64,000 nucleotides of DNA from an uncultured delta proteobacterium (lineage in GTDB: Bacteria > Desulfobacterota > WTBG01). Location: positions 292,526-356,525 of the forward strand of contig CAWCBP010000004.1 in assembly GCA_963793865.1 (NCBI GenBank), in the 5' to 3' direction. The translations under genes were made by a program, and so were the position numbers. Shown here one piece after another: positions 19,773 to 64,000 of this stretch; within the stretch, counting starts at the first letter, position 1; each line of letters opens with the position of its first letter. The notes beneath the pieces are model-generated. The model was given only the letters and a program-made list of their open reading frames with translations. It had not been told where the DNA came from and made no database searches.

Positions 19773-19788
19773 GATGATGCTCCTTCAT

Positions 19789-20639: not shown

Positions 20640-20729
20640 AGAGTAACCTCTTGGTCAACGGTAGTTATCAGCCAACAGATGGTACTTACACACCAGAGAT
20701 GTTGAGTGGCATCAACCCGGGTCCCTTCC

Positions 20730-21164: not shown

Positions 21165-21178
21165 GCTTCATCCTTTGC

Positions 21179-22225: not shown

Positions 22226-22318
22226 GGGAATGTATCTCTCCTGCAGATGCGCAATCAGCTAAATAAGTGCATTCATCCTGTTGATCTGAAATCCGAAATT
22301 CGAATAAACTTTTTACAT

Positions 22319-22464
22319 GAGATTGCTTCGTCGCTTATGCTCCTCGCAATGACCGTATTGGTGCGTCATTGCGTGAATTTGTCATTGCGAGCCCTTCGCT
22401 TGTCATTCTGAGCAACGCGAAGAATCTTGTTTTTGGCTCAGGATAAACTCCGCGCGGCAATCTC
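22319..22464. repeat. GTCATTGCGAG...GCAATCTC palindromic repeat cluster (family C)
   Basis: gagattgcttcgtcgc...ctcgcaatgac and gtcattgcgag...gcaatctc; related copy at 53318-53425. Confidence 0.75.
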
Positions 22465-22531
22465 GTTTTTGGACAAATCTGAAACAGCATCTATAATTAA
22501 CAAATAGCAAATTTAATTTGAATTATGCCTG

Positions 22532-25141: not shown

Positions 25142-25206
25142 AATAAGCCTTCAACCTCGATGGTATCGCCTGTTTAATAAATTATCAATGGGCTACCGCC
25201 CCTTTG

Positions 25207-26994: not shown

Positions 26995-27015
26995 CTGCCC
27001 GTTCCTTCCTGCAGC

Positions 27016-27399
27016 TTAATAGGTCGTTTCACTGCCCACCGCCAGGGCATATTTTTCCACTATCCTGCCGCCGATAACGTGTTCCACCAGGATCTCCCTG
27101 GTCTTCCCGTCATCCAGATCCACGTACTTGACCGGCGCTTCGCCGAGAAGCTCAACCGTGGCCATGGGCTCGCGGCTGCACAGCCCCGCGCATCCGGAGG
27201 TGGTAACGATGACATCCGTGATCTGCCGCTTGGCAATCTCATCCATAAACGCGCTCATGACCGCCCGCGCCCCGGACGCGATTCCGCAGGTCCCCATGTG
27301 GACGGTTATCTTGGCGCGCTGGCCGCCTTCCCGGAGGGTGGTGGCGGCTTTTGATTCCTCCTTTATCCGTTTCAAGTCATCGAGCGTCAGTTTCGGCAT
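27016..27399 (-). CDS. Thioredoxin-like [2Fe-2S] ferredoxin (HydD/HndB-like)
   Basis: VHMGTCGIASGA...TSGCAGLCSREP. Confidence 0.88.
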   Translation of the reverse strand: MPKLTLDDLKRIKEESKAATTLREGGQRAKITVHMGTCGIASGARAVMSAFMDEIAKRQITDVIVTTSGCAGLCSREPMATVELLGEAPVKYVDLDDGKTREILVEHVIGGRIVEKYALAVGSETTY

Positions 27400-27430
27400 A
27401 GCTTATACCTCCTGCGAGCAGCGCTTCCTG

Positions 27431-27580
27431 CAGGCTGTTGAAAAACGCCCATCTGCTGCGTTACACTCATCCTTCGTCATTGCAGCGTACTCACATGTAC
27501 GCCTCATTCCTCAGGATTTCGCGTGCCTTGCATCTGGATGTTTTTGAACAGCCTGCGGAAAACTATTTTTTCAACAACCT
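27431..27580. mobile_element. MITE (27431-27555) with CAGGCTGTTGAAAAA-type terminal inverted repeats, plus an extra partial TIR
   Basis: caggctgttgaaaaa...tttttgaacagcctg; related sequences at 38379 and 61870. Confidence 0.75.
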
Positions 27581-28109
27581 AATAATAATTTTTCTTTATG
27601 GTGTCTAAAGCCGTCGCCGGCTCCAGCAGGCCATAGGTGTCTTCGTTAACCATCATGGCCGGCGCGAGGCCGCAGCACCCGATGCAGCGCACGCCCTCCA
27701 GGGAAAATTTCTTGTCCGGCGTCACCTCGCCTTCGTGTATGCCCAGCTCCTGCTGCAGCCGCTTGTAAATTTCCTCGCTCCGCTTGACGAAACAGGCCGT
27801 CCCCAGGCAGACGCGGACATTGTATTTGCCCCGGGGCTTCATGGTAAAATAGGAGTAGAAGGAAACCACCCCGTACACCAGGCTGGGCGAAGTGTTCAGG
27901 CCTTCGGCAATTCTGCGCTGCACCTCCGCGGGCAGAAAGCCGCACACCTCCTGACACTGCTGGAGAACGGGTATGAGCGCACCGGCCTTGCCGACGTGCT
28001 CATCGATGACCCGGTCAACCTTTTCCCACTGCTCCGCGGTTATCTCCACGGTAACGTCCTGCTGCTTCTGCGCTGATTCTGCGTTCATTACTTGGAATAC
28101 CTCCACCAT
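27579..28109 (-). CDS. nuoE: NuoE/HydC-type [2Fe-2S] subunit
   Basis: VYGVVSFYSYF, VCLGTACFV, RCIGCCGLAP. Confidence 0.92.
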   Translation of the reverse strand: MVEVFQVMNAESAQKQQDVTVEITAEQWEKVDRVIDEHVGKAGALIPVLQQCQEVCGFLPAEVQRRIAEGLNTSPSLVYGVVSFYSYFTMKPRGKYNVRVCLGTACFVKRSEEIYKRLQQELGIHEGEVTPDKKFSLEGVRCIGCCGLAPAMMVNEDTYGLLEPATALDTIKKNYY

Positions 28110-28122
28110 GATATATATCTAT

Positions 28123-28668
28123 CTAATGCACGCCCAGCTGCGCCAGGCCCTCCTCGAGATCGCCCCTGATCAGCCCGATCACCCGGGGATCGGAAACGGG
28201 GACCTCGCCCAACTCCTTCCCGATCACCGCTGTGTCAAGGCTGTAGGTTCGGCCATCCCTGCGATGATGATAATAAAAGCTGATCCCGGGATTGCCCGCG
28301 ATGAGGGTGATCAGGGTCTCAACCATGTTTCCCCAGGGCTTGCGATCAATGTGGCTTGCCTGAAAGGTACCGGTCAGCTTCGTCCCCCTGCCCGGCTCGG
28401 ATTCTATGTGAACCCCGCCATTGCACGCCCGGGCCGCCTGGGCAAAGAGCGGTAATCCCAGGCCCACCTTTCTGGTCGTCCGCGTTGTCACAAAAGGATC
28501 CAGCACCCTGTCCGCCATCTTCCTGCTCATGCCCGTGCCGTCGTCGGTAATTTCTATGGTGAGCAGATCCCTGATGCTGTCCTCGTCTATCCCGATTTCG
28601 ATCCGCGTTGCCGCCGCGGTTATTGAATTCTCGGCAAGATCAAGAATGTGGAGGGAAAAATCCTGCAC
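28123..28668 (-). CDS. Stand-alone HATPase_c (histidine kinase-like ATPase)
   Basis: HILDLAENS, DDGTGM, DPFVTTRTTRKVGLGLPL, SHIDRKP; no sensor or HisKA domain. Confidence 0.88.
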   Translation of the reverse strand: MQDFSLHILDLAENSITAAATRIEIGIDEDSIRDLLTIEITDDGTGMSRKMADRVLDPFVTTRTTRKVGLGLPLFAQAARACNGGVHIESEPGRGTKLTGTFQASHIDRKPWGNMVETLITLIAGNPGISFYYHHRRDGRTYSLDTAVIGKELGEVPVSDPRVIGLIRGDLEEGLAQLGVH

Positions 28669-28672
28669 GCTG

Positions 28673-29422
28673 TCACCCTACCCCGAGCACCTTTCTGCCC
28701 TCTTTTCCCCCGAGCGCCAGTCTCATCTCGCCGATGCCGGCGGCCGACATCAGAAAGACGGTCGAACTTCTGCCGATCCCATCAAGGGAGTGGGCATCCG
28801 ATGAGCTGATGAAGGGGAGATGGTCGAGCCCGGGAAACCGCCTCCGCGCCTCATCCAGGCCCGTGGCCGGCGAAACCTCCAGCGCATCCAGCGCCAGCCC
28901 CGGCGGCACAAAGCCGAGCTGGCTGATGATGCTGTATGCCTCGCGATCAATGTGGGAGGCAACGGCAAGACCGCCCCGGGAGTGAATCAGCTCGACCACC
29001 GCTTCCAGGGGAAGGGTTGTTGCCCCGATCAGCAATTTTTCATTAAAGGACACGACCTCCTCGTGTTCATTGACCACAACCTGGCAGCCGAAGGTTTTTT
29101 CATCGTTTTTGCCGGGGAGGTGCTCGTACACAACCCCCTGCACCTCAAGGGCATGCGCTTCCGTTTCAAAAAGGCCCAGGATGTGAATTTCTTCCCGAGT
29201 GGTTATCTCCATTCCCGCCAGCGCCGCCAGCCCGGCGTCCTGCGCCGCCTTGTGCAGGGCGGGAAAATTCTCGCAGGAGTTGTGGTCGCACACCGCAATC
29301 ACCTGCAGGCCCGCCTCCACCGACCGTCGCACAATGGCACGGGGCGACATTTCGACAGGCTCGGTACAGGGAGAGAGGATGGAATGGATATGCAAATCCG
29401 CCCGATACGCCCTGAGCATCAC
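28673..29422 (-). CDS. PHP domain phosphoesterase
   Basis: DLHIHS, CDHN, GMEITTREEIH, SHIDR, SSDAH. Confidence 0.9.
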   Translation of the reverse strand: MMLRAYRADLHIHSILSPCTEPVEMSPRAIVRRSVEAGLQVIAVCDHNSCENFPALHKAAQDAGLAALAGMEITTREEIHILGLFETEAHALEVQGVVYEHLPGKNDEKTFGCQVVVNEHEEVVSFNEKLLIGATTLPLEAVVELIHSRGGLAVASHIDREAYSIISQLGFVPPGLALDALEVSPATGLDEARRRFPGLDHLPFISSSDAHSLDGIGRSSTVFLMSAAGIGEMRLALGGKEGRKVLGVG

Positions 29423-29763
29423 CTCGTTCCGGAAATGCCGAGGCCGTACAGCCTGCCCACGAGCTCAAAGGTCTGCAGCTCGCTCACCATAAGCGGGACG
29501 CCTTCCTGACGAGCCTTTTCCGCCGTCTGTTCCTCGGGCTTCCTGCCCTGAACCACAACGATGCCGGCCAGCCCCTTGAGCGAGGCAACGGCGATGACAT
29601 TGGGATGCGCCTGCATGGTCACCCAGATGTCGCCCTCCCTGCTGTTGGCCATGACGTCACTCAGCAGGTCGCTCGCGTAACCGCCGGTAACCTCCCCCTC
29701 CAGGTTCTCCCCGGCCGCCACCACCTTCAGCTCCAGTTTCTCCACGATATCCTTGAGCTTCAT
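29419..29763 (-). CDS. DRTGG domain protein
   Basis: VTGGYASDLLSDVMA, WVTMQAHPNVIAVA. Confidence 0.85.
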   Translation of the reverse strand: MKLKDIVEKLELKVVAAGENLEGEVTGGYASDLLSDVMANSREGDIWVTMQAHPNVIAVASLKGLAGIVVVQGRKPEEQTAEKARQEGVPLMVSELQTFELVGRLYGLGISGTR

Positions 29764-29783
29764 CCCATTCCCTTCAGTGGTTA

Positions 29784-31097
29784 TCACGCACCCTTCTTGC
29801 GAATCGAAAGAGGGGCTTTCTGAGCTATTTCAAGTCCCCTGAGCAGCGATTCCATGGTCGCTTCCCTGAGCTTGAACACGCAATCAGTGACCTCACCCCT
29901 TCCCTGGATGACATCCTCGGCAAAGGATTTACAGTTCGGGGCGCCGCATGCCCCGCAATTAATGCGCGGGAGACTCTCTAAAATGGATTCCCGCTCCTTT
30001 ACTTTCCTGATCGCCTCCCTGGCATCCGTGCCCAGCGGCTGCACGGGATAGGTGGACAGCTCAACATCGCATGACAGGTGGGCGCGCATCCGCTCCACTT
30101 CAGCGAGGTTAATGTTTAACTTCCTCCCCAGCTGCTGAATCAGTTTCATGGCCTTGATCTTGGCCAGAAAGCGATTATCCACCGCAAGGGGGCCCCCCAC
30201 GCACCCGCCGGGGCAGGCCCATAATTCCAGGTAGTTTACATTGGTGATTTTGCCGCGCTCCACGTCCTCCAGTATTTTGATTACATTTTTAACCCCGTCC
30301 ACGGCTATGGCATTCTCGATTTCGAGGCCGGCAATGCATGCGCCGGGGATCCCCGTGGCCACACCGAAGCCCCCCGAGTCGTGAAGCGGCTCAAGCGACT
30401 TGATCTTGCGGATGGCGCTAAAGAGAACCCCGTAGATATCCGAAATGGCAATGGCACCGTCCAGGGTCGGATCCGATTTGAAGATGGGGTGATTTACGGC
30501 GATCATCTTGGCGGGGCAGGGGGTGATAAAAATGGCCCCGACATCCTGGGGGCTTATTCCCAGTATTTTGGCCTTGGCCATCTTATATGCGCCGGCGATG
30601 GCGCTGGGCGCCTCCATGGAAAGCAGATTTCCCATGAGATCGGGAAAGTTTATCTGGATCAGCCTGACAACGGCCAGGCAGACGGTTGAGATGTAGGGCT
30701 TGTTTTGAGAATAGCTCTGGAGGTGTTCCTTGAGCACCGCCGAATAAATTTCACAGGCCCTGCCCACATCATAGGCCTCGTTAAAACCCAGACCCTTAAG
30801 ACCGTTTAAAATATGGTTGGGGGTAACGCCCATGCTGTACTGGGAGTACAGAACCGGAGAAGGTATGGCGATGGTGTATTTAAACCTGGTCAGGTCTTCG
30901 AACGACCCGGTCATGGATCGGACCGCCCGGGCGGGACATACCCGGATGCAGTCACCGCAGTCAATGCACCGGTCCTCCAGAATGAGGGCCTTGCCCTCAC
31001 GGATGCGCATGGCCTCGGTTGGACACGCCCGCATGCACTGCATGCAGCCGGTGCATTTATCGGTTTCCACCTCGATGGAGTGATAATATTTGCTCAT
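29784..31097 (-). CDS. [FeFe]-hydrogenase-like Fe-S protein (putative sensory HydS/group D-like)
   Basis: N-terminal 2x[4Fe-4S]; H-cluster-like motifs STVCL, TPCPAKM, ELWACPGGCVGG; C-terminal CGACGAPNC...C Fe-S domain. Confidence 0.82.
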   Translation of the reverse strand: MSKYYHSIEVETDKCTGCMQCMRACPTEAMRIREGKALILEDRCIDCGDCIRVCPARAVRSMTGSFEDLTRFKYTIAIPSPVLYSQYSMGVTPNHILNGLKGLGFNEAYDVGRACEIYSAVLKEHLQSYSQNKPYISTVCLAVVRLIQINFPDLMGNLLSMEAPSAIAGAYKMAKAKILGISPQDVGAIFITPCPAKMIAVNHPIFKSDPTLDGAIAISDIYGVLFSAIRKIKSLEPLHDSGGFGVATGIPGACIAGLEIENAIAVDGVKNVIKILEDVERGKITNVNYLELWACPGGCVGGPLAVDNRFLAKIKAMKLIQQLGRKLNINLAEVERMRAHLSCDVELSTYPVQPLGTDAREAIRKVKERESILESLPRINCGACGAPNCKSFAEDVIQGRGEVTDCVFKLREATMESLLRGLEIAQKAPLSIRKKGA

Positions 31098-31552
31098 GGC
31101 CGGTCTTTATTTCCGGTTAGGATGACCATTTCCACCCGCGTGCCCTCACCTACCACCGAGCTGATGCGCAATTCATCGGTGTTCTTCTTGATGTTGGGCA
31201 ATCCCAGGCCGGCCCCGAAGCCCATTTCCTTGATTTCCCTGGAGGAGGTTGAATAACCCTCCTGCATGGCCAGCTCGATATCCGGAATGCCCTGCCCCTC
31301 ATCATCGGCAATGACCGTGAGAAGATCCGGGGTAATGGCCAGGTGAAACGCTGCATGCCGCGCATAGCACACCACGTTCATCTCGGCTTCATAGACGGCA
31401 ATAGCCGCCCGCCTGATGATGTCATGGCTTATGCCGATGTCTTTTAAAATCGCCTTAATGCTGCTTGAAACCTCGCCGGCATGAATGAAATCGCCGCCCT
31501 GTACGGCAAACTCCCGCTCCAGCAGGGGCTCAGCTTGTTTTTCCTGCATCAT
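31094..31552 (-). CDS. RsbW/RsbT-like Ser/Thr kinase (anti-sigma regulatory factor fold)
   Basis: YEAEMNVV, DEGQGIPDIELAMQEGYST, GFGAGLGLPNIKK. Confidence 0.88.
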   Translation of the reverse strand: MMQEKQAEPLLEREFAVQGGDFIHAGEVSSSIKAILKDIGISHDIIRRAAIAVYEAEMNVVCYARHAAFHLAITPDLLTVIADDEGQGIPDIELAMQEGYSTSSREIKEMGFGAGLGLPNIKKNTDELRISSVVGEGTRVEMVILTGNKDRP

Positions 31553-31904
31553 CAACTCTTTCAATACAACCGGACAGGCCGTGCTTGAACAACCTGCCGC
31601 AGGTTTCAAACATGATGTAACGGGTGCAGAAGAGCGGAATCTTTTTGGCCCGGGCAAGCTTGATCGCTTCCTCGTCAGGCCTTTTGCCCCTCACGAAGAC
31701 AATGCCCAGCAGCTCCAGCATTTCAGCGGTGCGCACCACTTGCGGGTTGGTAATCCCGGTTATGAGGAGCGCGCCCTCCCTGGCAAAGGCCAGAACGTCG
31801 CTCAGGAGGTCGGAAGCAAAGGCGCCCCTGATGGTATCCTCCATGCGGTCATCACCGACCACAACCTCCGCTCCCAAAATATCCGCCAGCTCTCTGAAGG
31901 TCAT
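31530..31904 (-). CDS. DRTGG domain protein
   Basis: AFASDLLSDVLA, LLITGITNPQVVRTAEM, VFVRGKRP. Confidence 0.85.
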   Translation of the reverse strand: MTFRELADILGAEVVVGDDRMEDTIRGAFASDLLSDVLAFAREGALLITGITNPQVVRTAEMLELLGIVFVRGKRPDEEAIKLARAKKIPLFCTRYIMFETCGRLFKHGLSGCIERVDDAGKTS

Positions 31905-31933
31905 ACGCTTGAGATCTCCATGCCCGGGACCGC

Positions 31934-33121
31934 CTACCGGTCCACCTCTCCCAGGCAGATGTCAATGCTGCCGATAATGGCAACGATGTCGGCCATCATC
32001 CGCCCCTGCGCCATGGTGCAGAACGACTCCATGTTCACAAAGGAGGGGGTTCTGATCTTCACCCGGTAGGGCTTGCTGCCCCCATCGCTCACAATATAAA
32101 AGCCCAGCTCCCCTTTTGACGACTCCACGCTGCAATACGCCTCGCCTTTGGGCACATTGAATCCCTCGGTCATCAAATGGAAGTGGATGATCAATGACTC
32201 AATGCTTTCCTGCACCAGCTCCTTCGGAGGAGGCACCACCTTGGGGCTCACGGCGTTGAACGGGCCCGAGGGCAGCCGCTCCAGGGCCTGCCTGATGATC
32301 CGGTTGCTCTGGCGCATCTCCTCCAGCCGCACCAGGTAGCGGTCATACGAATCCCCGTACCGGCCGGTGGGTATCTCGAAATCAAAGTGATCGTAGGAGG
32401 AATAGGGATTGGCCTTGCGCAGATCCCACTTTACCCCGCAGCCCCTCAGGCAGGGGCCGGAAAGCCCCAGGGCGATGCCCTCTTCCGCTGAAATGACCCC
32501 CACGCCCTTTGTCCGGTTGAGCCAGATCTTGTTTTCGGTCAGCAGGCGCTCGTACCCGTCAATCCGAGAGGGCAGCACCTCACAGAAGGCCTTCACCTTT
32601 TCTTCAAACCCGTCAGGCAGGTCGGCGGCAAGGCCCCCGATGCGAAAGTAGCTCTGGTTCATCCGGGCCCCGCCCACCATTTCAAACATGTCCAGGGTTT
32701 CTTCCCGCTCGCGGAAGCAGTAGAGCAGCGGCGACATGGCCCCGATGTCCAGGGCATGGGTTCCCAGCCAGATGAGATGGCTCTGGATCCTGGTAAGTTC
32801 GGCGAGCAGCACCCTGGCATACTGGGCCCGGAGCGGAACCTCCAGGTCCAGAAGCTTCTCAACCGTAAGCACGTAGGCAAGGTTGTTGATGAAGGGCGAG
32901 GTATAATCCAGCCGGTCGGTGAGGGTGATGAACTGGTGGTAGGTTTTATGCTCGGCCAGCTTCTCGATGCCCCGGTGCAGATACCCCAGCACCGGGGTTG
33001 CCTTGGTGACCACCTCGCCGTCGAGCTCCAGCACCACCCGGAGCACCCCGTGGGTGCTTGGATGCTGGGGGCCCATGTTCAGGGTTACCACCTCTGTCCT
33101 GATGTCAGACGCTGTTTCCAT
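31934..33121 (-). CDS. nuoD: NADH-quinone oxidoreductase subunit D
   Basis: NMGPQHPSTHGVLR, GYLHRGIEK, DRLDY, GEVDR; no Ni-binding CxxC. Confidence 0.96.
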   Translation of the reverse strand: METASDIRTEVVTLNMGPQHPSTHGVLRVVLELDGEVVTKATPVLGYLHRGIEKLAEHKTYHQFITLTDRLDYTSPFINNLAYVLTVEKLLDLEVPLRAQYARVLLAELTRIQSHLIWLGTHALDIGAMSPLLYCFREREETLDMFEMVGGARMNQSYFRIGGLAADLPDGFEEKVKAFCEVLPSRIDGYERLLTENKIWLNRTKGVGVISAEEGIALGLSGPCLRGCGVKWDLRKANPYSSYDHFDFEIPTGRYGDSYDRYLVRLEEMRQSNRIIRQALERLPSGPFNAVSPKVVPPPKELVQESIESLIIHFHLMTEGFNVPKGEAYCSVESSKGELGFYIVSDGGSKPYRVKIRTPSFVNMESFCTMAQGRMMADIVAIIGSIDICLGEVDR

Positions 33122-33139
33122 ACTGTGCAAAGCCCCCGT

Positions 33140-54862: not shown

Positions 54863-56078
54863 TCATCTCCTTGTTTCCACGGAGGGCAGAACGGGCAGCA
54901 GGGTCACCAAGGCGCGGTAGATAAAGACGATGGTGAGAACGAGCCCGAGGGTCAGGGCGAATTCCCCGATGGCAGGAACATAAGCCTTGATGGCGTAGAA
55001 CGGTTCATAGGCGATAAAGAAGACGGTTGACCGGTTGAGGAGAATCCCCGGCGACATACATGGCGGCGGCGATAAAGAGTGAGCGGGGCGAGCGGCGGAC
55101 ATCCGAGGACATGAACATGAAAAAGGGAACCACCGTCAGCAAACCGAATTCAATCCAGAACATCATAACCGCAGGATGGGCCTCCATAAGATACAGGTAG
55201 CTTCCCCTCCAGAGCATGTCACCCAGCTTGACGGCAATATAAAGACCCAGCAGCCAGGGGATAATTTTCGCGAGCGGGGTGAGCACGTGCATCTCCGGTT
55301 TTCGGCCGAAGGCCCTGCCGGCAATCATCGATTCAAAGATGATCATGGCACAGCCCGACCGCGATGGCGGAGGTCAGGAAGAAGAGCGGCCACAGCTGCG
55401 ACCGGTAGAGCGGATGCATCTTGTAAGGCGCAATGACCATGAGGGTGCCGAGCGAGGACTGGTGCAGGCAGGAGAGCACGATCGCCGGCAATGATGAAGA
55501 TGAACATGATCTTGCCCAGGATATAATCCGCGAACCTGAGCGCCATGTCCACGCTGTCGTTGAAGCGGCCCAGCATGCCGGGCAGGTTGACCCGGCCGAT
55601 GAACCGCTCGCAGACGATGGGGACGAACTCGATGTACAGCACCGTCAGGTAGATCATCACGCACATGCCGACTTCAAAGAGCACGGAGTTGCCCTGCCAC
55701 ATGAAGGGCACCGTCGGATGCCAGACGTTGTACCAGCGCCCCAGGTCGAACAGGAGCCCGATGCCCACAAAGGTGTAGCCCAGCAGTCGCGGTCAGCAGG
55801 GCCGGGCGGATGACCGCGTGGAAGTGCTCGCGATTGAAAATGTAGACCAGTGCGCTCGAGGTAAACCCGCCGGCGGCCAGCGCGACGCCGGTGGCCACAT
55901 CAACGCCGATCCAGAGCCCCAGCGGATACTGGTCGTTCAGATTGGTGACCGCCTCAAGGCCGAAGAACATGCGGTAGAGGCCGAACCCGAGCCCGCTGAG
56001 CATGATGGCGGTCAGGGCCTTCATGCCGGGGGTGAAAAACGTTTTCTGCACCGGCGCCGCTTGTTCGTGGACGCTCAT
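54863..56078 (-). CDS. hmcC: HmcC/HybB-like NrfD-family membrane subunit, several frameshifts
   Basis: TNLNDQYPLGLWIGVDVATGVALAAGGF, DLGRW, SVLFEVGMC spread over four ORF fragments. Confidence 0.78.
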
Positions 56079-57010
56079 GATCTGCCTTCGCTCCCGCTCA
56101 CATCCGGGTTGGAATGCTTACTTGCTTTTCTGTTCCGCAGCCACCACATGATGCCGCCCAGGGTTGCGTACAATCCGATGGGCGGGAGAAACCATTTGAA
56201 AATCGCGTGCTGAATCGGCTCGGTGTAGCCCGGCGCGGGATGGTATCCAAGGCGTGGGGAAATCAATTTCCTCGAAAGGAACACCCGACAGATACAGCCA
56301 GGCGGTTCCTCCCACCTCCTGCTCCCCATAGACATGCGGAACATAGCGGCCGGGGTATTTCCGGATCAGCTCCCTTGCCACGCACGATAAGGTCGTTCCG
56401 CTTGCCGAAGGTCATCACCTCCATGGGGCAGGATTGCACGCAGGCGGGCACTTTACCCCTGGCGAGCCGCTGCTGAAAACAGAAGGTGCATTTTCTCACC
56501 TGGGGCGTAAGCACGTTGCCGATATTCATAGGCAGGCACCTGGAACGGGCAGGCGGCCATGCAGTAGCGGCAGCCGATGCACTTCCATGCGTCATAGATC
56601 ACCGCCCCGCTGGGGTCCCTGGTAAACGCGCCGACGATGCAGGCGGAAACGCAGGCGGGGTAAAGGCAGTGCATGCACTGGAATTTTGTAAAATAGGGCT
56701 TGCTGTCCCGGCGTGCTTTCGTAGCGGTTGACCACGGTGTAGGCGCCATAGTCCATCCGCCGCTTCTGCTTCGAATGCCGACTCATCCTTAAACCACTCC
56801 GCCGGCCTGCGGGGAAGGTCCGTCGTTGATCTCATTGCAGGCCTTTTCACAGTTCCGGCATCCCACGCAGCGCGTGGTGTCAACCAGCACGCCGCACTGA
56901 TCGGGATTGACCTGCAGGCGGGACGCCTCGGCCTCTCTCCTGCCGCCCAGCAGAAACAAGCCTGAAATACCCGCCGCCTTCTGTAAAAATGTCCGTCTGG
57001 AACTTCTCAT
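56075..57010 (-). CDS. hmcB: HmcB/HybA-like Tat-exported [4Fe-4S] protein, several frameshifts
   Basis: SRRTFL Tat motif, [42 protein letters not shown]...PACVQSCP, C-terminal TM. Confidence 0.8.
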
Positions 57011-58799
57011 GAATGCTTTGTGTGCCTTCTATTCTTTGACCGCCTGCGCCTGTTCTTCCTTCTTCTCCTCGTGACAGCCGGTGCAGGTCTGAGGCATGTC
57101 TTCTTCCTTGCCGCCCATCTGCTTGTGGCAGCCCAGGCATTGCTGGTGATAGGCGCCGAGCAGGGTCGGTATGGCTGACTCGGGTTCCTTCCGGACGGTG
57201 TGGCAGGTCGCGCAGGACGGAACTTGTGCCTGCTTCTCCAGGGGCCCAGATGGTGGCAGCCGGCGCAGACGGTGTGTCTCCTCAACGTGAAAATGCTGTG
57301 CCAGCTTGCTTTCGTTGCGAAATCTCGGTGAGCTTCTGCAGCGATCTGCAGGTGTTTCACCTTTGAAGGCTGGTATTCATTTTCCAGGACCTTGATCTCC
57401 AGCTCATCCTCAAGGTCTTCGGGGAATAAGCTCCTTCGGGTCGGGAAGTTTCCTGGCTGCTCGAGGCTCGCGAGCTCGCCGGTGTGGCAGGTGCCGCAGG
57501 AGGATTCAACCAGTCCTCCCTGAGGCGGTGGTGGCAGCCGGCGCAGTCCGCTTTCTTCTTCTCCGTCTCGTGGCAGCCGATGCAGCTCCAGGGCGATGAA
57601 GCCTCGTGGTGGGCCTCTGCCAGGGTGATGCCCTCACCCTCGTCGCATCCCTCCACCGTATGGCATTCGGCACAGGGCCGCAGGGTTTGATGGTGGCAGT
57701 CCTGGCAGGAACGGCTTTTTTCCTGGTGTCGCCTTGTGGTTGAAGGGCACCCCCTTGGCCCGGGCCCCTTCTTCTATCAGGATGAGGATCTTCTCTTCCT
57801 GTTCGCAGTCCTGGCGGGGAACGTCGGCCATTTCTTCGATGGTGCGCGCTGTACCCGTGTGGCATTCGTTGCAGTCAAGCGGCCCGCCCTTCTCCTGTTT
57901 CGCCTTCGCGCTCAAGATGGCAGTTCAAGCAGCGGAAGTGTGCGCTTTCCTCTTCGGTCAGGCTGTTCTTCTCATCGATCTCCCTGAGCCAGTCCTTGCA
58001 GGCCGGCTCTTTTCCCTCGGCCGCAAGCTGCGCCTTCCGCTGCGGGGAGAGATAATGGCAGAGTTCGCACTTCTCTTCGAGCGCCTTGTCGTGCTTGTCG
58101 TGAATCGAGGTAGTCAAAGAGCGACCTGTCGGCCAGGCGTCTTCACGACGTGCGCTTCCTTCACGTAGAAGGCCTTCCAGTCGAGGCCCCCGGCGTCCTC
58201 GGCCGCTTTGGCGGGTTCCGGTGGCAGGCGAGGCAGTCCTTGTGATAGGTGTCTCGCAGTACCTCGTAGTACTCGGGCATGACCGGCGAGATATTCCCGC
58301 TTCAGATACTCCTCGCTGATCGACGATGGCATTCGCCGCAGGTGACCGGTCCCGCCTTCTCCCCCGCGTCGGCTTGCTCCTGGTGGCAGCCGATGCAGGC
58401 GTCGTGATACGAATTCATCAGCGCGTCTTTATCGCGTCTCGTTCCGTTCCTTGGGAAAGGTAAAGAGGAGCTTTTCATCTTCGTCCTGGGGTGGCAAGGG
58501 TGCAGCCATCCTTTTCCAGCGCTGCGCGCGTGCTTGTCGTGGTTGAACTTTACCGGCGCCCTCTCCAGCTCCTTAAATATTTCCGGCAGCTCGATAAAGC
58601 GCGGCCGCTCCGGCAATTCCTTTTTCTCCACTGCAGGAGGCTGCACGTCGGGCGCGAGCGTCTCTTCGGTGATGCCGCTTTCCTGAACCACCGCATCCAC
58701 CGCCTCTTCTTCCGAGGAAACAACCGCCTTCTTCCCGACCATCCCCAGGCAGAGGCAAAGAAACATCATGACCACCAATGCCGACCATTTCTTATTCAT
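57007..58799 (-). CDS. hmcA: HmcA-like high-molecular-weight multiheme cytochrome c (about 16 hemes), several frameshifts
   Basis: Signal peptide, PVKFNHDKH and VPFNHK c3-type motifs; 16 CxxCH counted across frames, one of them broken by an indel. Confidence 0.8.
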
Positions 58800-58831
58800 T
58801 CACGTGCCTTGACCTGTAAACCGGTGCGCTC

Positions 58832-59755
58832 TTACAAAACGGGGCGGGGCAGCAGCCCGGCCTTCTGGACAATCTCCGGGACGCGGTGCTCCCACTCGAT
58901 GGCCATAAGGTGGATGCCCGCCACCCCTTTCATGGTTTTGAATTCCTCGATCTGCTCGCAGCAGATGGCGATGCCCTCGGCCGCCTGGGCCTTTTTCTCA
59001 ACGCCTTCAATCCGCTTGATGACCCAGTCGGGGACATCCATGCCGGGAACATTTTTCTGCATGTAGCGCGCCATGCCCAGCGACTTCATGGGCGTGACGC
59101 CGGCCAGGATGTACACCTTCTCGGTGAGGCCCATGTCGCGCGCCTGGCTGATCCAGGTCCTGAACCGCTCCATGTTATAGATGCACTGGGTCTGTATGAA
59201 GTCGACTCCCGCCGCTATCTTTTTGGCCAGCCGGTGGACCCTGAACTCGTAGGGCTCGGCAAAAGGGTTCGCGGCGGCACCGATAAACATTTCGGGGGCT
59301 TTGGTAAGCGCCTCGCCGTTTAAAAATGTCCTCTCGTCGCGCATCTTCTTGACCATGCCGATGAGCTGGACGGAATCAATGTCAAACACCTTTTTGCTTT
59401 TGGGGTGGTCGCCGAAGATCTGGTGGTCGCCGGAGAGGCAGAGCATGTTCCTGATGCCCAGGGCAAATGCCCCCAGGATGTCGGATTGCATGGCAATCCG
59501 GTTGCGGTCCCTGCAGACCATCTGGTAATTGGGCTCCAGCCCCTCTCCTGATGAGAGGATGCAGGCGGCCCAGCTGGCCATGCGCACAACCGCCGTCTGG
59601 TTGTCGGTAATATTGATGGCGTCAACCGTGCCTTTGAAATGCTTGGCCTTTTCCTGTATCACCTCCGCGTCCGCTCCGCGGGGCGGGCCGAGTTCCCCGG
59701 TTACGGCGAACTGCCCCGCGCTGAGCACCTTCTCCAAATTGCTTCCTGATTTCAT
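58832..59755 (-). CDS. metF: Methylenetetrahydrofolate reductase
   Basis: VTGELGPP, NITDNQTAVVRM, CRDRNR, LSGDH, FIQTQ, GIHLM. Confidence 0.93.
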   Translation of the reverse strand: MKSGSNLEKVLSAGQFAVTGELGPPRGADAEVIQEKAKHFKGTVDAINITDNQTAVVRMASWAACILSSGEGLEPNYQMVCRDRNRIAMQSDILGAFALGIRNMLCLSGDHQIFGDHPKSKKVFDIDSVQLIGMVKKMRDERTFLNGEALTKAPEMFIGAAANPFAEPYEFRVHRLAKKIAAGVDFIQTQCIYNMERFRTWISQARDMGLTEKVYILAGVTPMKSLGMARYMQKNVPGMDVPDWVIKRIEGVEKKAQAAEGIAICCEQIEEFKTMKGVAGIHLMAIEWEHRVPEIVQKAGLLPRPVL

Positions 59756-59832
59756 CTCCCGGCTCCTGTTTCGGATGCCTAGTGGCGCAGGCTGCAGGTA
59801 GCTGACTTAGCAAGGGCGAGGCATGTCGCCTG

Positions 59833-60510
59833 TCAGGACTTCGGCGTGTATCTGTCCCTGTACTCTTCCAAAACAATGCTTCGCTGAACCTGGTCCTGCC
59901 ACTCCCTGGGCGCGTATATTTTATGAATGCTGTCCAGCCTGCCCTGCGCCTTCAGCCGTTCGTAGATATTCACCCAGGCGCAGGGGATGTCCGTGCTTAC
60001 CTCGCAATGGCCGTCTTTGGGCCCGCCGCAGGGCCCGTTAAAGAGGGATTTGGCGCACATGGTCACCGGACAAATTCCGGCGGTCATGTCCAGCACGCAG
60101 TCGCCGCAGCACTTGCAGCGCTCTTCATACCATCCGATATCCCGGTTGACGCCCACAAAGGTGGTGTTGACCGCCGGAAAAACCGGCTTGTCGGGAAACC
60201 GCTCCGCCAGAAATTGAATTCCCGCGCCGCAGGCCATGGAGAGAAGCGCCCCGTACGGTTTGACCATCCGGTCAAGCTCCGCCAAAAAGGGCACTTCGCA
60301 CTGGCGCTCCACTGTATACCCGTCGATACTGAAGGGGATCCCCTCCCCTTTGAATGAAAGCGACAGACGGAGGTTCAAATTGTCAACTTCCTTCTGGCCG
60401 CCCGCCAGGCAGACAGCGACGCATCCCCCGCATCCCACATTCAGAACCCGGCCGCAGCCCTTGAGCATCGCCTTTATCTCTTCCAGTGGCTTAATTTCCG
60501 CTATTACCAT
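59833..60510 (-). CDS. metV: Methylene-THF reductase Fe-S/Zn subunit (MTHFR_C)
   Basis: GCGGCVAVC, ERQCE, CKCCGDC, CPVTMCAKSLFNGPCGG, CAW. Confidence 0.9.
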   Translation of the reverse strand: MVIAEIKPLEEIKAMLKGCGRVLNVGCGGCVAVCLAGGQKEVDNLNLRLSLSFKGEGIPFSIDGYTVERQCEVPFLAELDRMVKPYGALLSMACGAGIQFLAERFPDKPVFPAVNTTFVGVNRDIGWYEERCKCCGDCVLDMTAGICPVTMCAKSLFNGPCGGPKDGHCEVSTDIPCAWVNIYERLKAQGRLDSIHKIYAPREWQDQVQRSIVLEEYRDRYTPKS

Positions 60511-60557
60511 GTCTTAGACTCCCTGATTTACTGTTTTCTCAGACATGCTTGTATCCG

Positions 60558-60580
60558 GTAGGAGCGGCTTTAAGCCGCGA
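60558..60580 (+). repeat. REP family A copy supplying the stop codon of the Fe-S ORF
   Basis: gtaggagcggctttaagccgcga. Confidence 0.8.
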
Positions 60581-61124
60581 ATTTTCGATGGGATATGCTT
60601 AACAGCTCGACTGCGTTCCATCGCAATGACATACCGATTGTCTGCCGATTTACATCAATGACAGATACATTGACAGCATTGAGATCCCGTTTCATTAACT
60701 TGCGGCGAGGCGTATCCCGGTACTCGCCCGCCGGCCCGCCCACCGAATGCGGATACATGCCGTAAATGCCCTGCGAGCGCAAAATGGACCGCGCAAAGGC
60801 GATCATGTTGGGAATATCAATGCCGAAGGGACAATAGCATCGCCCGCAGAGCGCGCAGTTTTTGAAGACCAGCTCCTTCATCTCTTCAAGCTGGGCGCGG
60901 TTTACCCTGCCGCGCTTTTTGTACAGCCGCCCCAGGGAACGCACCACTTTATACGAGGGCATGTAGCGGGGATCCTTGTCATGGCCCATGAACAGAAAGC
61001 AGCTCTCCGCGCACAGGCTGCAGCTTGCGCACGCGGTGAGACAGAGCTGCATCCTGCTCTTTTTCTGCCCGAGCAGCTCCCTGATTTTCGCCGTGTCGAC
61101 CGCCGGTTTCTTATGTTCAGGCAT
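60570..61124 (-). CDS. 2x[4Fe-4S] protein resembling the N-terminal domain of TmcB/HmcF/DsrK, without CCG domain
   Basis: CASCSLCAESC and CALCGRCYCPFGIDI; YMPSYK motif; no CCG motif. Confidence 0.78.
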   Translation of the reverse strand: MPEHKKPAVDTAKIRELLGQKKSRMQLCLTACASCSLCAESCFLFMGHDKDPRYMPSYKVVRSLGRLYKKRGRVNRAQLEEMKELVFKNCALCGRCYCPFGIDIPNMIAFARSILRSQGIYGMYPHSVGGPAGEYRDTPRRKLMKRDLNAVNVSVIDVNRQTIGMSLRWNAVELLSISHRKFAA

Positions 61125-61142
61125 CGGGTCTCCTTTTCCTTC

Positions 61143-61829
61143 CTACCGCGACCAAGTCCTGTTGCCCCGCCCGAAAGCGTATTCTCCGCCCATGAGCATT
61201 CTCACAAAAAAGAAAAACACCATGTGCCCGATTTTGCTGAAAGGAATGGCGATAAGCATTGCCTCGCCCGCAAGCATGTGCAGGGTAATGACTGTCTTGT
61301 AATCAAACCACTGATGATAGGCGAAAAGGCCGGTCAGAAACGGAGCGGCGGTCAGGAAGAGCACGGCATAATCATAGGCGGTGGAGATGGCCTGCACGCG
61401 GGGAATCACCATGCGGCGCATGAGAAAGAAGAGGGCGCATGCCAAAAGGATCATGGTAAAAAGATCGATCAGTCCATCAGGCAGGCTGGGAAGCGAAATC
61501 TTCCAGGACTCGTAGAACAACAGACTGTGGCCGAGGGCAAGCAGCGGGGCAAGAAAAAGGCAGCTGTGGAATATCACGCTCACGATGGCCATGACCGGGT
61601 TTTTCCCGATGAGCGTGTTCTGGAAGGCAACAATCATGTTTATCTTTTTCTCTTCGTCTGTCGCAGCGGCGGGAGGGGCTGCCCCGGCAGGGCGGGCGGG
61701 ACAGAGGATGCGCTCCTTCCGCCCGGTTAATAAAAACAGCTGCAGGGCCCGCACGGCAATGCCGCACACAAAAATAAGCGCCGAGATCCACACCAGCGGT
61801 CCCCGGGCCAATTCATACAGCATCTGCAT
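61143..61829 (-). CDS. TmcC/HmcE-like NarI-family membrane cytochrome b
   Basis: GPLVW, FH...GH and LH...PFSKIGH heme-b histidine pairs. Confidence 0.82.
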   Translation of the reverse strand: MQMLYELARGPLVWISALIFVCGIAVRALQLFLLTGRKERILCPARPAGAAPPAAATDEEKKINMIVAFQNTLIGKNPVMAIVSVIFHSCLFLAPLLALGHSLLFYESWKISLPSLPDGLIDLFTMILLACALFFLMRRMVIPRVQAISTAYDYAVLFLTAAPFLTGLFAYHQWFDYKTVITLHMLAGEAMLIAIPFSKIGHMVFFFFVRMLMGGEYAFGRGNRTWSR

Positions 61830-61869
61830 ACAGCTACTCCTTTAACGCCGGGCAGATAAGAACATCCTG

Positions 61870-61906
61870 TACGTAACGCAGCAGATGGGTGTTTTTCACC
61901 AGCCTG
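61870..61906 (-). mobile_element. Partial copy of the CAGGCTG MITE
   Basis: Reverse complement caggctggtgaaaaacacccatctgctgcgttac matches 27431-27464. Confidence 0.7.
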
Positions 61907-62794
61907 CTATGTGTCCAGCCAGGAGTTAGAGAACAATACCTGCCCCTGAAGCACTTTCACTGATTTGGCATACTGCTTTTCTTTTTCTGAAAGGCCCGCC
62001 ATGTCAACCGGCCGTCCGTCCATCAGCTTCGCAACCAGCTCGAACAGTTCCGGCATCCCGCCTTTGCAGAGGGCCATCATTTCCTTATCGTACGCGTCAA
62101 CAATAGCCGAGTAGAGCCCCTGCTTGTGGAGCATCAGGAGATAGGGACGGTTCAAAAAGGGGCGCAATGCGTCAGGGGCGCCATTGGAGACGTTTGACAA
62201 TCCCACGGTCGATTTGCAGCCGGGGCCCAGATCCTGCAGCATGCCCATAAACTCCAGACAGGCCTTCACCTGGTTTATCTCCCCGCTGATGGGGGTTGCA
62301 ATAGGATCGATGAAAATGTCCTCATTGGGAATGCCCTTTTCGTTTGCCTTGATTATAAGGTCCACGGCCAGGGAAGCCCGTTCGTTCACGTCCCGGGGCA
62401 TTCCGTCGGTCCCCCAGAGCAGGCCCACCATGAGCGCGCCGTATTTTTTTACCAGGTCGAGTCCCGGATCAATGCGGTCAAGCTGACAGGAAACGGAATT
62501 GACCAGGGGGCGCCCGCCTTTTTTGTGCGCCTTCAAGCCCGCCTCCATGGCCTCCAGGTTGGTGGTATCAAGCGAGAGGGGCAGATCTACCACCTCGTGG
62601 ATGGTCCTGACCAGCCACTCCATCATCTCGGCGCCGCCCTTGCGCGCGGGCCCTATGTTGACGTCGAGAAACTGCGCACCGGCCTCTGCCTCGGCGATGG
62701 CCATTTCCTGGATGGGCTTGGAGTTTTTCTCCCGCATGGCCGGCCCTATGGTCTTGGACATGATGTTAATGCTCTCGGCGATGGCTACTATCAT
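61907..62794 (-). CDS. acsE: Methyl-THF:corrinoid Fe-S protein methyltransferase (pterin-binding)
   Basis: AESINIM, LDVNIGP, LSLDTTN, NSVS, IDP, GLSNVSNG; follows acsC. Confidence 0.85.
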   Translation of the reverse strand: MIVAIAESINIMSKTIGPAMREKNSKPIQEMAIAEAEAGAQFLDVNIGPARKGGAEMMEWLVRTIHEVVDLPLSLDTTNLEAMEAGLKAHKKGGRPLVNSVSCQLDRIDPGLDLVKKYGALMVGLLWGTDGMPRDVNERASLAVDLIIKANEKGIPNEDIFIDPIATPISGEINQVKACLEFMGMLQDLGPGCKSTVGLSNVSNGAPDALRPFLNRPYLLMLHKQGLYSAIVDAYDKEMMALCKGGMPELFELVAKLMDGRPVDMAGLSEKEKQYAKSVKVLQGQVLFSNSWLDT

Positions 62795-62857
62795 GGCTTT
62801 GATCCCCCCGTGTGTGTCACAATCGTTAATAATAAACCAAACATGGTTGAACTTTCG

Positions 62858-62907
62858 GCAGGAGCGCATTCATGCGCGATTCATCAGCGGCTTAAAGCCG
62901 CTCCTGC
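62858..62907. repeat. Inverted REP doublet, family A
   Basis: gcaggagcgcattcatgcgcga...gcggcttaaagccgctcctgc. Confidence 0.8.
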
Positions 62908-62947
62908 CGGTTGTCACTCAGTCAGACTCCCGCCGGCATGAGAAAGC

Positions 62948-64000
62948 TTATGCCTTCCCGGAGGCGAGATTTTTCAGGAAGGGCGTAATGTGGGCAGCTT
63001 CCCGCGGCCCGATTTGAACCTCCCAGTCCTTAAGCTCTTCATCCAGTTCTCCGCTGATGGTTGCGGCCGCCCCCGGTATGATGAGCTTTCTGTGCTTGAT
63101 CTTCCCCTCGATCCCGCACTTTTTTACAAACGGGGCGATGGCATCGGCCACAAACTTTCCCGCCGCCCAGGCGGTGAGCACCGAAAGTCCCTCGGTATCC
63201 TTGATGAGCAGCCAGGCGGGAATCCGGCTGGACTCCACCTCGCCCGACACAATAAAATAGGTGAGGGAGAAGTTGCTGGTTATCAGCACCGGCGAGTTTT
63301 CGTCGGGGTTGTTGATCTCGTAAATCCCCTCGGTAGTGGCCATGGGCCGCTGGGGATCGGTGTAGATGTTCATCCGCTGCAGCGCCAGCGGGAAAAGATT
63401 GTGCCCTTCAACCGTTGAAAGAATGATGATGCCGCCGTACTTGGGTATGAAGGTTGAGGCGATAATGGCCTCCTGGACGGGGTCGTCCGTCATCTCGCAG
63501 GGGAAGACAATGGTGGGGAAACCCAAGGGGCGGAACCGGTCAACAAGGGCCGCCCTGCGAATGGCGATGTGGTCCTGAAATGCCCGGCTCAGCTTTCTGG
63601 CGCCGGTGTCCACAACGATGTCCTTGATCTTCATCTCGGTGAGCTTGGCGGTCATGGCGGCAACCTCCTCCAGGCCGTTCCCCTTTACCGCCAGCGGGCA
63701 GTTGTGCTCAAGGGCCAGTTTGCCCAGTTCCTCGAGATTTCCGTTTGTTGCCGCATAGAGAAGCGGTTTGCAATCAGCGGCCGCCGTTACCCCCGCCTTC
63801 AGGACCCCGGTTGTATCGCTCATCAAAACCAGGTTTTTAATCCCCGCCTTCATCACCTTTTCAACCGTCCCGGCAAACTTCCCGGCATCCCCGGTGGTAT
63901 CCTTTACGGCCACGATGTCCGCTTTCAAAAGAAGGCCGACCCGCTCGTACTCAAGCTCCCTGAACGTTTTCAGCCGGCTTTCCAGCTCGGCATCTCCCAT
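62948..64000 (-). CDS. acsC: Corrinoid Fe-S protein large subunit (ACDS gamma), 5' truncated by window
   Basis: IYTDPQRP, TSNFSLTYF, GLSVLTAWAAGKF, HRKLIIPG, GPREA. Confidence 0.95.
   Translation of the reverse strand: MGDAELESRLKTFRELEYERVGLLLKADIVAVKDTTGDAGKFAGTVEKVMKAGIKNLVLMSDTTGVLKAGVTAAADCKPLLYAATNGNLEELGKLALEHNCPLAVKGNGLEEVAAMTAKLTEMKIKDIVVDTGARKLSRAFQDHIAIRRAALVDRFRPLGFPTIVFPCEMTDDPVQEAIIASTFIPKYGGIIILSTVEGHNLFPLALQRMNIYTDPQRPMATTEGIYEINNPDENSPVLITSNFSLTYFIVSGEVESSRIPAWLLIKDTEGLSVLTAWAAGKFVADAIAPFVKKCGIEGKIKHRKLIIPGAAATISGELDEELKDWEVQIGPREAAHITPFLKNLASGKA

Follow-up and report, generated by a model that had tools for sequence, protein, structure and literature searches.

The Tmc complex (TmcABCD in Desulfovibrio vulgaris) has been described as a transmembrane conduit between the periplasm and the cytoplasm (PMC5109826; the sources cited here by PMC number were available as excerpts), and the Tmc2 complex of D. 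multivorans contains a full-length TmcB2 subunit of 50 kDa (PMC5109826). For methylene-tetrahydrofolate (methylene-THF) reductases, membrane connections of a different kind have been described. The Sporomusa ovata enzyme is attached to the membrane via MvhD and HdrCBA, with no subunit that carries a transmembrane helix (PMC9430772), and quinone-dependent methylene-THF reductase activity has been reported for Thermacetogenium phaeum, together with a model of reversed electron transport (PMC6895022). A review from 2021 states that energetic coupling at this step was postulated ∼45 years ago, that genomes had provided no evidence of membrane localization, and that a membrane-integrated protein would be required (PMC8578096). 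In the available part of the D. autotrophicum paper, two TmcBCA clusters are listed and a figure carries the label "MetF-ABC," with no link stated between them (PMC2702500). The subject of this work is a run of nine genes at positions 54863 to 64000 of a 64,000-nucleotide stretch of DNA (G000:C4:292526-356525; hereafter the window) from the host genome G000, in which genes for a MetVF-type methylene-THF reductase stand between those for a Tmc/Hmc-type cytochrome b with a short iron-sulfur (Fe-S) protein and those for HmcABC-like proteins. The product of this operon is probably a MetVF-type methylene-THF reductase that is bound to the membrane via a Tmc/Hmc-type scaffold and would link the methyl-THF/methylene-THF couple to periplasmic cytochromes and/or menaquinone.

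Composition of the gene cluster

All nine genes are encoded on the minus strand in the order acsC, acsE, TmcC/HmcE-type cytochrome b, short 2x[4Fe-4S] protein, metV, metF, and hmcA-, hmcB-, and hmcC-like genes, which confirms the co-oriented run that an earlier note had read from the sequence of the window. The open reading frames (ORFs) of acsE, the cytochrome b (228 amino acids [aa]), the Fe-S protein (184 aa), metV, and metF are intact, and acsC extends past the end of the window.

The cytochrome b (positions 61143..61829) has TmcC as its best family match in NCBIfam (E 9e-55, 185.5 bits against a cutoff of 240, profile positions 2 to 218 of 218) and also matches HmcE over its full length (E 2e-45); DsrM is a distant match (E 7e-4), and the Pfam domain Nitrate_red_gam scores 21.5, under its cutoff of 22.9. 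Four His residues, H88, H101, H184, and H202, are invariant in an alignment of 39 sequences and form two pairs with spacings of 13 and 18 residues, as would be expected of a di-heme protein of the NarI fold. In a Foldseek search with the AlphaFold (AF2) model of this protein (predicted local distance difference test [pLDDT] score of 81), ranks 1 to 8 were NarI chains (probability of 1.0, TM score of ∼0.5, E of ∼0.01, a weak match), and rank 9 was EtfD from Mycobacterium smegmatis. Sequence identity to NarI and EtfD is 14 to 16%, and a sequence search of the PDB with the cytochrome b returned chance matches only.

The protein encoded next to it (60570..61124) corresponds to the N-terminal ferredoxin domain of HmcF, TmcB, and DsrK. 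Its NCBIfam matches cover positions 35 to 152 of the 457 in HmcF (E 6e-29), 31 to 137 of the 430 in TmcB, and 33 to 152 of the 453 in DsrK (E 4e-13); the CCG domains are missing, in agreement with the earlier note, which had described an HmcF/TmcB-like subunit devoid of them. Eight Cys residues, in the patterns CxxCxxCxxxC and CxxCxxCxC, are invariant. The search for homologs returned 578 proteins of 101 to 322 aa, mostly 134 to 178 aa among the matches listed, and their source names are limited to "Fe-S oxidoreductase" and "heterodisulfide reductase subunit C." A PDB search with the Fe-S profile gave no match. The ORF in the window is longer (184 aa) than its counterpart in a close relative (L003, genome G001; 143 aa) or in the family as a whole (∼140 to 165 aa), because a 1-nucleotide deletion at position 60712 relative to L003, near the 3' end of the gene, lets the frame read on. 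Since the tail past approximately residue 138 is not conserved in the family and is disordered in the model, the true end of this protein is uncertain.

The genes metV (59833..60510; PF12225, E 2e-36, 124.1 bits) and metF (58832..59755; PF02219, E 1e-38, 133.5 bits), which encode the small Fe-S subunit and the catalytic subunit of the reductase, respectively, are separated by 77 nucleotides, and both domain scores are far above the cutoffs, as befits a genuine MetVF pair. MetV has 13 Cys residues that are invariant among 41 sequences, and MetF is 97.4% identical to its ortholog in L003. No gene for RnfC2 or HdrABC-MvhD is found beside this metVF pair, whose neighbors are the cytochrome b, Fe-S, and hmcABC-like genes. 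A search for longer forms of MetV returned seven matches: four MetV/MetF fusions, two fusions with RnfC-like proteins, and one oddity. The RnfC-like/MetV fusions would fit a role of MetV as a docking subunit for electron transfer modules. The host genome contains a second metVF locus (G000:C4:184000-192000, corresponding to L081:2113-10079) with genes for MvhD (FlpD), MetV, and MetF, followed by those for two glutamate synthase-like proteins, one of which has a Fer4 domain, and a protein with the GXGXG motif; its gene content points to a partner set of the soluble type that differs from HdrABC.

Downstream of metF, from position 58799 to 54863, the frames are split into pieces of ∼60 to 210 aa that are readable as a c3-type cytochrome, a twin-arginine Fe-S protein, and an NrfD-type membrane protein. 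They make up an hmcA-like gene for a 16-heme periplasmic cytochrome c (57029..58799), an hmcB-like gene for a 4x[4Fe-4S] protein exported via the twin-arginine translocation (Tat) pathway, with an RR motif in the translation and a C-terminal membrane anchor (56081..57010), and an hmcC-like gene for an NrfD-type integral membrane subunit (54863..56078). The reference for these genes was L003, which is 90 to 96% identical in nucleotide sequence and carries all three intact. The HmcA-like protein of L003 (587 aa) has 16 CxxCH motifs and, as judged by eye, an N-terminal hydrophobic segment typical of signal peptides; it matches HmcA in the PDB (E 8e-58) and scores just under the cutoff of NF045713. 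The HmcB-like protein (307 aa) has a twin-arginine signal, four Cys clusters, and a C-terminal hydrophobic segment, and it scores 324 bits against HmcB and 243 bits against HybA, whereas the HmcC-like protein (403 aa), of the NrfD type (PF03916), scores 349 bits against HybB and 254 bits against HmcC. The 16-heme cytochrome of the earlier note is thus present in the intact ortholog, and the copy in the window, though frameshifted, is 90.3% identical to it in the aligned codons.

The cluster resembles Tmc (TmcA, TmcB, and TmcC were compared) in having a cytochrome b whose best family match, though below the cutoff, is the TmcC membrane anchor, and its Fe-S subunit carries the 2x[4Fe-4S] domain found at the N terminus of the cytoplasmic TmcB. 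The periplasmic tetraheme cytochrome of Tmc has a counterpart in 33 of 60 related loci (see below); in the window, the 16-heme HmcA-like gene stands in its place. Unlike in Tmc, the TmcB-like subunit is ∼140 aa long instead of ∼430 and has no CCG domain, MetV and MetF are encoded in the cluster, and the host lacks dsrA and dsrC. From Hmc (HmcABCDEF of D. vulgaris; HmcA, HmcB, HmcC, HmcE, and HmcF were compared), the cluster has counterparts of the 16-heme HmcA, the Tat-type Fe-S protein HmcB, the NrfD-type HmcC, the cytochrome b HmcE, and the N-terminal domain of HmcF. However, the order is permuted (E-F'-metV-metF-A-B-C), HmcF is truncated, the scores stay under the equivalog cutoffs, the HmcB- and HmcC-like proteins score about equally well against HybA and HybB, and 9 of 11 genomes have no dsr context. 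DsrMKJOP offers a similar division into a cytoplasm-facing cytochrome b and Fe-S pair (MK) and a periplasm-facing module of cytochrome c, Fe-S protein, and NrfD (JOP), and its minimal, MK-only form is paralleled by those related loci that have no cytochrome c gene; the similarity to DsrK and DsrM is only distant, as noted above, and the substrate would be methyl- or methylene-THF, via MetVF, rather than the DsrC trisulfide. The MetFV-HdrCBA-MvhD systems of Moorella thermoacetica, S. ovata, and T. phaeum have the same MetF and MetV core and a proposed electrical link to the membrane, to quinone, and to cytochrome b (PMC9430772, PMC6895022). In contrast to these systems, which have no transmembrane subunit (PMC9430772), the cluster in the window has a dedicated cytochrome b and no HdrA, HdrB, or MvhD. 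NarI and the cytochrome b domain of M. smegmatis EtfD resemble the cytochrome b in predicted fold and in having two invariant His pairs; they differ in the low sequence identity given above and in their partners. Judged by its content, the cluster would represent a further type of MetVF reductase, combined with a Tmc/Hmc scaffold outside sulfur metabolism.

The gene run is the distal part of a long Wood-Ljungdahl operon, since genes for fhs, the RACo activase, a CooC-type ATPase, folD, acsD, and acsB are found upstream on the contig. The acsC gene (62948..64000 in the window, with PF03599 in that part) encodes the large subunit of the corrinoid iron-sulfur protein; the full ORF (L001:474-1832) comprises 452 aa with PF04060 and PF03599. 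The product of acsE (61907..62869) is the methyl-THF:corrinoid protein methyltransferase (PF00809; NF005719, 213 bits; NF040758, 189 bits). In L003, ∼330 extra bases (L003:8886-9213) separate acsE from the cytochrome b gene. A scan for promoters and terminators found 19 terminator-like sites against 11.9 ± 3.6 expected and was uninformative; it placed no terminator-like site between metF and hmcA.

Conservation and linkage to metV

One genome per species was scanned with two peptide patterns derived from the Fe-S alignment, which yielded 60 loci, all of them in metagenome-assembled genomes (MAGs). Their labels include Thermodesulfobacteriota or "delta proteobacterium," Syntrophaceae or Syntrophales, Planctomycetaceae, Thermoguttaceae, Victivallales, Acidobacteriota, Nitrospinaceae, and others. 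The cytochrome b gene lies directly upstream of the Fe-S gene in 57 of these loci, and two of the three exceptions begin at a contig end. Likewise, metV is adjacent to the Fe-S gene in 57 loci (downstream within 1.2 kb in 54 and just upstream in 3), and a metF gene whose product is at least 55% identical is found within 2.5 kb in 52. Genes of the acs group are located upstream in only 31 loci, so the linkage is independent of the acs operon. An arrangement seen again in 60 loci across several phyla can hardly be due to chance, and the gene order that the earlier note had suggested looking for (cytochrome b, short Fe-S protein, and metVF, with or without hmcABC) proved to be conserved.

A co-oriented ORF for a c-type cytochrome is present in 54 of the 60 loci, and two layouts can be distinguished. 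In 21 loci, the cytochrome is of the Hmc type (16 to 20 CxxCH motifs) and the order is that of the window: cytochrome b, Fe-S protein, metV, metF, hmcA, hmcB, and hmcC (type A), with the cytochrome gene sometimes split or cut by a contig end. In the other 33, mainly from Syntrophaceae, metF is followed by the genes for cytochrome b, the Fe-S protein, a tetraheme cytochrome of ∼135 aa with a signal peptide, and MetV, a Tmc-like layout (type B); this cytochrome has four CxxCH motifs, or three in L062. Among the six loci with no such ORF, four are cut off by the contig end just past metF. The metF gene upstream of cytochrome b in type B loci shows 72 to 75% identity, and a second, divergent MetF-like gene follows metV in the loci of this type in the range L024-L048 (e.g., L025:12064-12936, 290 aa), with 35 to 39% identity to MetF. 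The cytochrome b and the Fe-S protein are fused in four cases (L055:173-1270, L056:1854-2951, L057:243-1340, and the database protein P0121 of 363 aa). These fusions are 363 to 365 aa long, with the Fe-S part at the C terminus, and the MAGs are labeled Desulfobacteraceae, Nitrospinaceae, and Bacteroidales. In a search for longer forms of the Fe-S protein, a cytochrome b fusion (P0121) was the sole longer relative.

In an even sample of 401 genomes from the host phylum, the short form of the Fe-S protein (an ORF of <210 aa matching at E ≤4e-53) was found in 29 (7%); it also occurs in MAGs labeled as other phyla. Another 36 genomes match solely via longer ORFs of 265 to 605 aa, most of which have the 440 to 530 aa that would fit TmcB/HmcF; their E values are no better than 4e-43, and a clean score gap divides the two groups. 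Judging by these matches, the short form without CCG domains is a distinct and widespread family and no accident of the G000 genome. By comparison, MetV is present in 319 of the 401 genomes. In the host's small order, the Fe-S profile matched 3 of 11 genomes, a count that understates the presence of the cluster: in G016, which belongs to the same genus as the host, the cluster is split over two contigs, and the Fe-S gene falls in the gap.

Frameshifts in the hmcABC-like genes

Relative to L003, the window version of hmcABC contains 41 indels, consisting of 29 one-base insertions and 12 one-base deletions (15 and 8 in hmcA, 9 and 3 in hmcB, and 5 and 1 in hmcC, respectively). They are very probably consensus errors, because there is no nonsense codon, the substitutions keep a third-position bias, relatives have intact genes, and similar patches are found elsewhere in both G000 and G001. 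Not one of the 1,279 aligned codons is a stop, and the amino acid identity to L003 is 90.3, 90.5, and 88.9% for HmcA, HmcB, and HmcC, respectively. The third codon position accounts for 93 of 153, 65 of 99, and 110 of 156 substitutions in the three genes (61 to 71%), compared to 13 of 22 to 29 of 37 in the six intact flanking genes, and 230 of the changed codons are synonymous versus 129 that are nonsynonymous. In G016, metV, metF, hmcA, hmcB, and hmcC are each a single unbroken match.

The strongest argument comes from a control in which 226 kb of G001, the source of L003, were compared with the host genome. Both genomes contain multikilobase patches with 10 to 19 indels per kb, most of them of one base, but the positions differ: G001 is fragmented where G000 has intact ORFs of 979 and 1,076 aa, and the broken parts of G000, hmcABC and the region around C10:45-52 kb, are intact in G001. 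For comparison, a clean 17-kb stretch has 15 indel runs. Such patches look like an assembly quality problem that creates false pseudogenes. Patches with 10 to 23 indels per kb were located at C10:45031-51967 and C10:39841-42054 of G000 and at L065:4481-16712 and L071:2854-9579 of G001.

Contigs from four other metagenome runs provide weak support for the same reading, as they represent other populations. Along the flanks they align to the window without gaps and almost perfectly (e.g., 2 of 572 letters or 1 of 436 differ); within hmcABC, 31 differing letters and 10 gaps were counted over 587, and they do not have the extra bases of the window at positions 56822, 57276, 57318, 57342, 57428, 57908, 58107, and 58287. 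The substitutions are a separate matter. The divergence from L003 is 8.7 to 13% in hmcABC and 3.8 to 7.1% in the flanks, and the third-position changes include 159 from AT to GC versus 51 from GC to AT in hmcABC, compared to 54 versus 54 in the flanks. Random errors were considered as the source of the excess substitutions and rejected, since it is at third codon positions that AT-to-GC changes are in excess. The hmcABC genes look like a genuinely diverged allele with a higher GC content at third positions (GC3), not like noise, and this allele may have arisen by recombination.

It is unlikely, then, that hmcABC is truly dead in this strain, with all 41 indels real and only the cytochrome b, the Fe-S protein, and MetVF at work, coupled to menaquinone alone. 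In favor of this view, the indels are confined to positions 55049-58521, within the three genes, with intact flanks on both sides, and synteny with L003 breaks right past hmcC; the contigs from the other runs, in turn, leave the window version without independent confirmation either way. Natural gene decay, however, is usually biased toward deletions and toward AT, and in the window insertions outnumber deletions, the inserted base is C or G in 24 of 29 cases, and all indel runs in the metV-hmcC alignment except one are single bases. The absence of nonsense codons, a third-position bias equal to that of the intact flanks, and the long genes broken by like patches in one genome and intact in the other, in both directions, also speak against decay. 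The earlier note had regarded genuine frameshifts and silent genes as fatal to its proposal; the frameshifts look technical, with no stops, a preserved codon-position bias, and comparable patches in both MAGs. Past the point where synteny stops, L003 carries a gene for a 1,355-aa dockerin domain protein on the opposite strand (L003:16323-20390), and the window carries a phosphoribosyltransferase gene.

Proposed electron path and host context

In the proposed complex, a di-heme cytochrome b of the TmcC/HmcE family would be embedded in the membrane, and the short 2x[4Fe-4S] protein, equivalent to TmcB/HmcF minus the CCG catalytic domains, would sit on its cytoplasmic face. This Fe-S protein would exchange electrons, in either direction, with MetV and the flavoprotein MetF, so that MetVF substitutes for the CCG/DsrC chemistry. 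At the periplasmic side, a multiheme module would provide the connection from the cytochrome b, and/or from the menaquinone pool, into the cytochrome network of the periplasm; it would consist of HmcA, the Tat Fe-S protein HmcB, and the NrfD-type HmcC in the window and of a TmcA-like tetraheme cytochrome in many other genomes. The path would thus run from the MetF flavin via the MetV clusters, the two [4Fe-4S] clusters, and the two b hemes to periplasmic hemes (of HmcA via HmcB/HmcC, or TmcA-like) and/or to menaquinone.

The redox potentials are -200 mV for the methylene-/methyl-THF couple and -432 mV for formate (PMC6895022) and -74 mV for menaquinone (PMC8578096). Outward flow, i.e., methyl-THF oxidation, could be pulled by the membrane potential or could end, downhill, on menaquinone. 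With outward transfer via the b hemes, the membrane potential could bring the effective potential down far enough to serve formate, H2, or extracellular acceptors, which would amount to reversed electron transport of the T. phaeum type with a dedicated membrane subunit added. Inward flow from periplasmic donors to methylene-THF would form an energy-conserving redox loop like the one suggested for S. ovata (PMC9430772). In the host, the outward, oxidative direction would be the more likely one, because no dsr genes and no group-1 hydrogenase were found, multiheme cytochromes are many, menaquinone synthesis is encoded, and a second MetVF of the soluble type is available. A more far-reaching version is conceivable, if doubtful: the membrane-integral reductase might be a respiratory complex in its own right that moves electrons directly across the membrane, through the two b hemes and with no quinone step, between methyl-/methylene-THF and periplasmic multiheme cytochromes. 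If so, outward flow would lift the electrons of methyl-THF from -200 mV to the potentials of formate, H2, or extracellular acceptors, so that acetate or methyl oxidation via the Wood-Ljungdahl pathway would lose its thermodynamic bottleneck in bacteria without sulfate reduction, and inward flow would make methylene-THF an energy-conserving terminal electron acceptor, the coupling site postulated since 1977.

Several observations weigh against the proposed membrane-bound reductase. None of the five Hmc/Tmc-like subunits reaches the respective NCBIfam equivalog cutoff (in bits, 391 of 400 for HmcA, 324 of 420 for HmcB, 254 of 550 for HmcC, 155 of 275 for HmcE, and 101 of 750 for HmcF), and the hmcABC genes as assembled cannot be translated and show the AT-to-GC excess. 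Two loci, L029 and L055, have no metV match, and two others, L037 and L061, have enough DNA and yet no gene for a c-type cytochrome. With menaquinone as the partner at its potential of -74 mV, the reductive direction would be uphill. The sequencing runs that match the locus include no RNA run, and none exceeds 0.40 of the sampled words. Finally, the contact of MetV or MetF with the Fe-S subunit is something that we infer. The model of the Fe-S protein has a pLDDT of 66, and the best match in its fold search, chain 5odc_C of HdrC, has an E of 1.9. No MetV/Fe-S fusion was found among the seven longer MetV relatives, and the one longer Fe-S relative was the cytochrome b fusion, in searches that are a weak guide to absence. 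A complex prediction for residues 1 to 140 of the Fe-S protein with MetV, made from two alignments, scored 0.09, which gave no answer, and is not used as evidence.

These gaps leave room for the view that the genes are neighbors only: the cytochrome b, the Fe-S protein, and HmcABC or the tetraheme cytochrome could make up a Tmc/Hmc-like complex of their own that exchanges electrons with ferredoxin or another soluble carrier, and MetVF would share the operon only because both serve Wood-Ljungdahl metabolism. The lack of any fusion or structural tie between MetV and the Fe-S subunit in the searches just described agrees with this view, as does the fact that the MetVF enzymes described so far were purified in soluble or loosely membrane-attached form (PMC8578096, PMC9430772). 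It is nevertheless quite improbable. The 57 loci with the short Fe-S gene beside metV include 29 with no acs genes upstream, and 33 loci have the cytochrome c gene placed between the Fe-S gene and metV. Moreover, a Tmc/Hmc-type cytoplasmic subunit that has lost its catalytic CCG domains offers no obvious site for a substrate, and the genome has a separate, MvhD-linked MetVF for soluble chemistry. Far more remote is an accessory role in which the cytochrome b/Fe-S pair supplies or drains occasional electrons, e.g., when MetVF or the corrinoid protein needs redox repair or activation. All that speaks for such a role is the context of the acs operon, in which the RACo activase shows that activation functions are encoded; with RACo, however, an activase is already present, a 16-heme cytochrome with a Tat Fe-S protein and NrfD, or a tetraheme cytochrome, would be a heavy investment for repair, and the linkage to metV persists where acs genes are missing.

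The host genome is 98.6% complete with 3% contamination. No dsrA match over the cutoff (none above 21 bits) and no DsrC were found in it, so DsrC cannot be the cytoplasmic partner of the Tmc/Hmc-like scaffold here; the check for dsrAB and dsrC that the earlier note had called for thus came out in line with its proposal. Among 10 other genomes with the type A cluster, 2 have dsrA over the cutoff, which leaves 9 of the 11 tested, the host included, without a dsr context. In the host genome, the cytochrome b and the Fe-S protein are each encoded once, no long match of the HmcF/TmcB type was found at E ≤1e-30, and HmcABC has no other HmcE/F-like partner. As to the overall interpretation in the earlier note, the loss of the CCG domains, the linkage to metV, the cytochrome gene in 54 of 60 loci, the absence of dsrA and dsrC, and the conserved order all stood; the docking of MetV and the route and direction of the electrons are what we still infer.

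The earlier note had also called this route apparently uncharacterized, and no description of a cytochrome b/short Fe-S/MetVF cluster was indeed found in full-text searches and in the excerpts available; Pereira et al. 2011, reportedly a study of the comparative genomics of sulfate reducers, falls outside that coverage and could hold an earlier remark. The available parts of PMC5736913, PMC9012536, PMC10553843, PMC6129605, and PMC6295475 contain nothing relevant to the cluster. The work on S. ovata and T. phaeum deduces a membrane link without a membrane subunit (PMC9430772, PMC6895022), and the cluster offers a dedicated cytochrome b, an Fe-S adaptor, and periplasmic cytochromes beside metVF. 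It also provides a defined gene set for expression, purification, and assay, and it would mean that Tmc/Hmc-type scaffolds are reused beyond sulfur metabolism.

The host encodes the genes of the futalosine pathway of menaquinone synthesis and 31 ORFs with at least four CxxCH motifs. One cluster, at G000:C1:550435-576891, contains 12 ORFs with 4 to 14 CxxCH motifs, five of them with 13 or 14. This set of 31 multiheme ORFs, including the C1 cluster, suggests extensive periplasmic or extracellular electron transfer. The sole [NiFe] hydrogenase match in the host genome is complex I-like (group 4) and is located beside a molybdopterin enzyme; no group-1 hydrogenase was found there. An FdnG-like formate dehydrogenase alpha subunit (642 and 212 bits, in two pieces) is encoded at G000:C1:242091-245795, next to an HmcB-like Fe-S gene, with 12 stops read through; one of these, a TGA, may encode selenocysteine, and the remaining stops suggest another indel-dense patch. 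The window itself also carries a Nuo (complex I) operon at positions 14749-33130, in which two genes stand between the nuoE-like and nuoD-like ones: one for a histidine kinase-type ATPase protein (28126-28668) and one whose product resembles [FeFe] hydrogenase and has an additional Fe-S domain (29787-31097).

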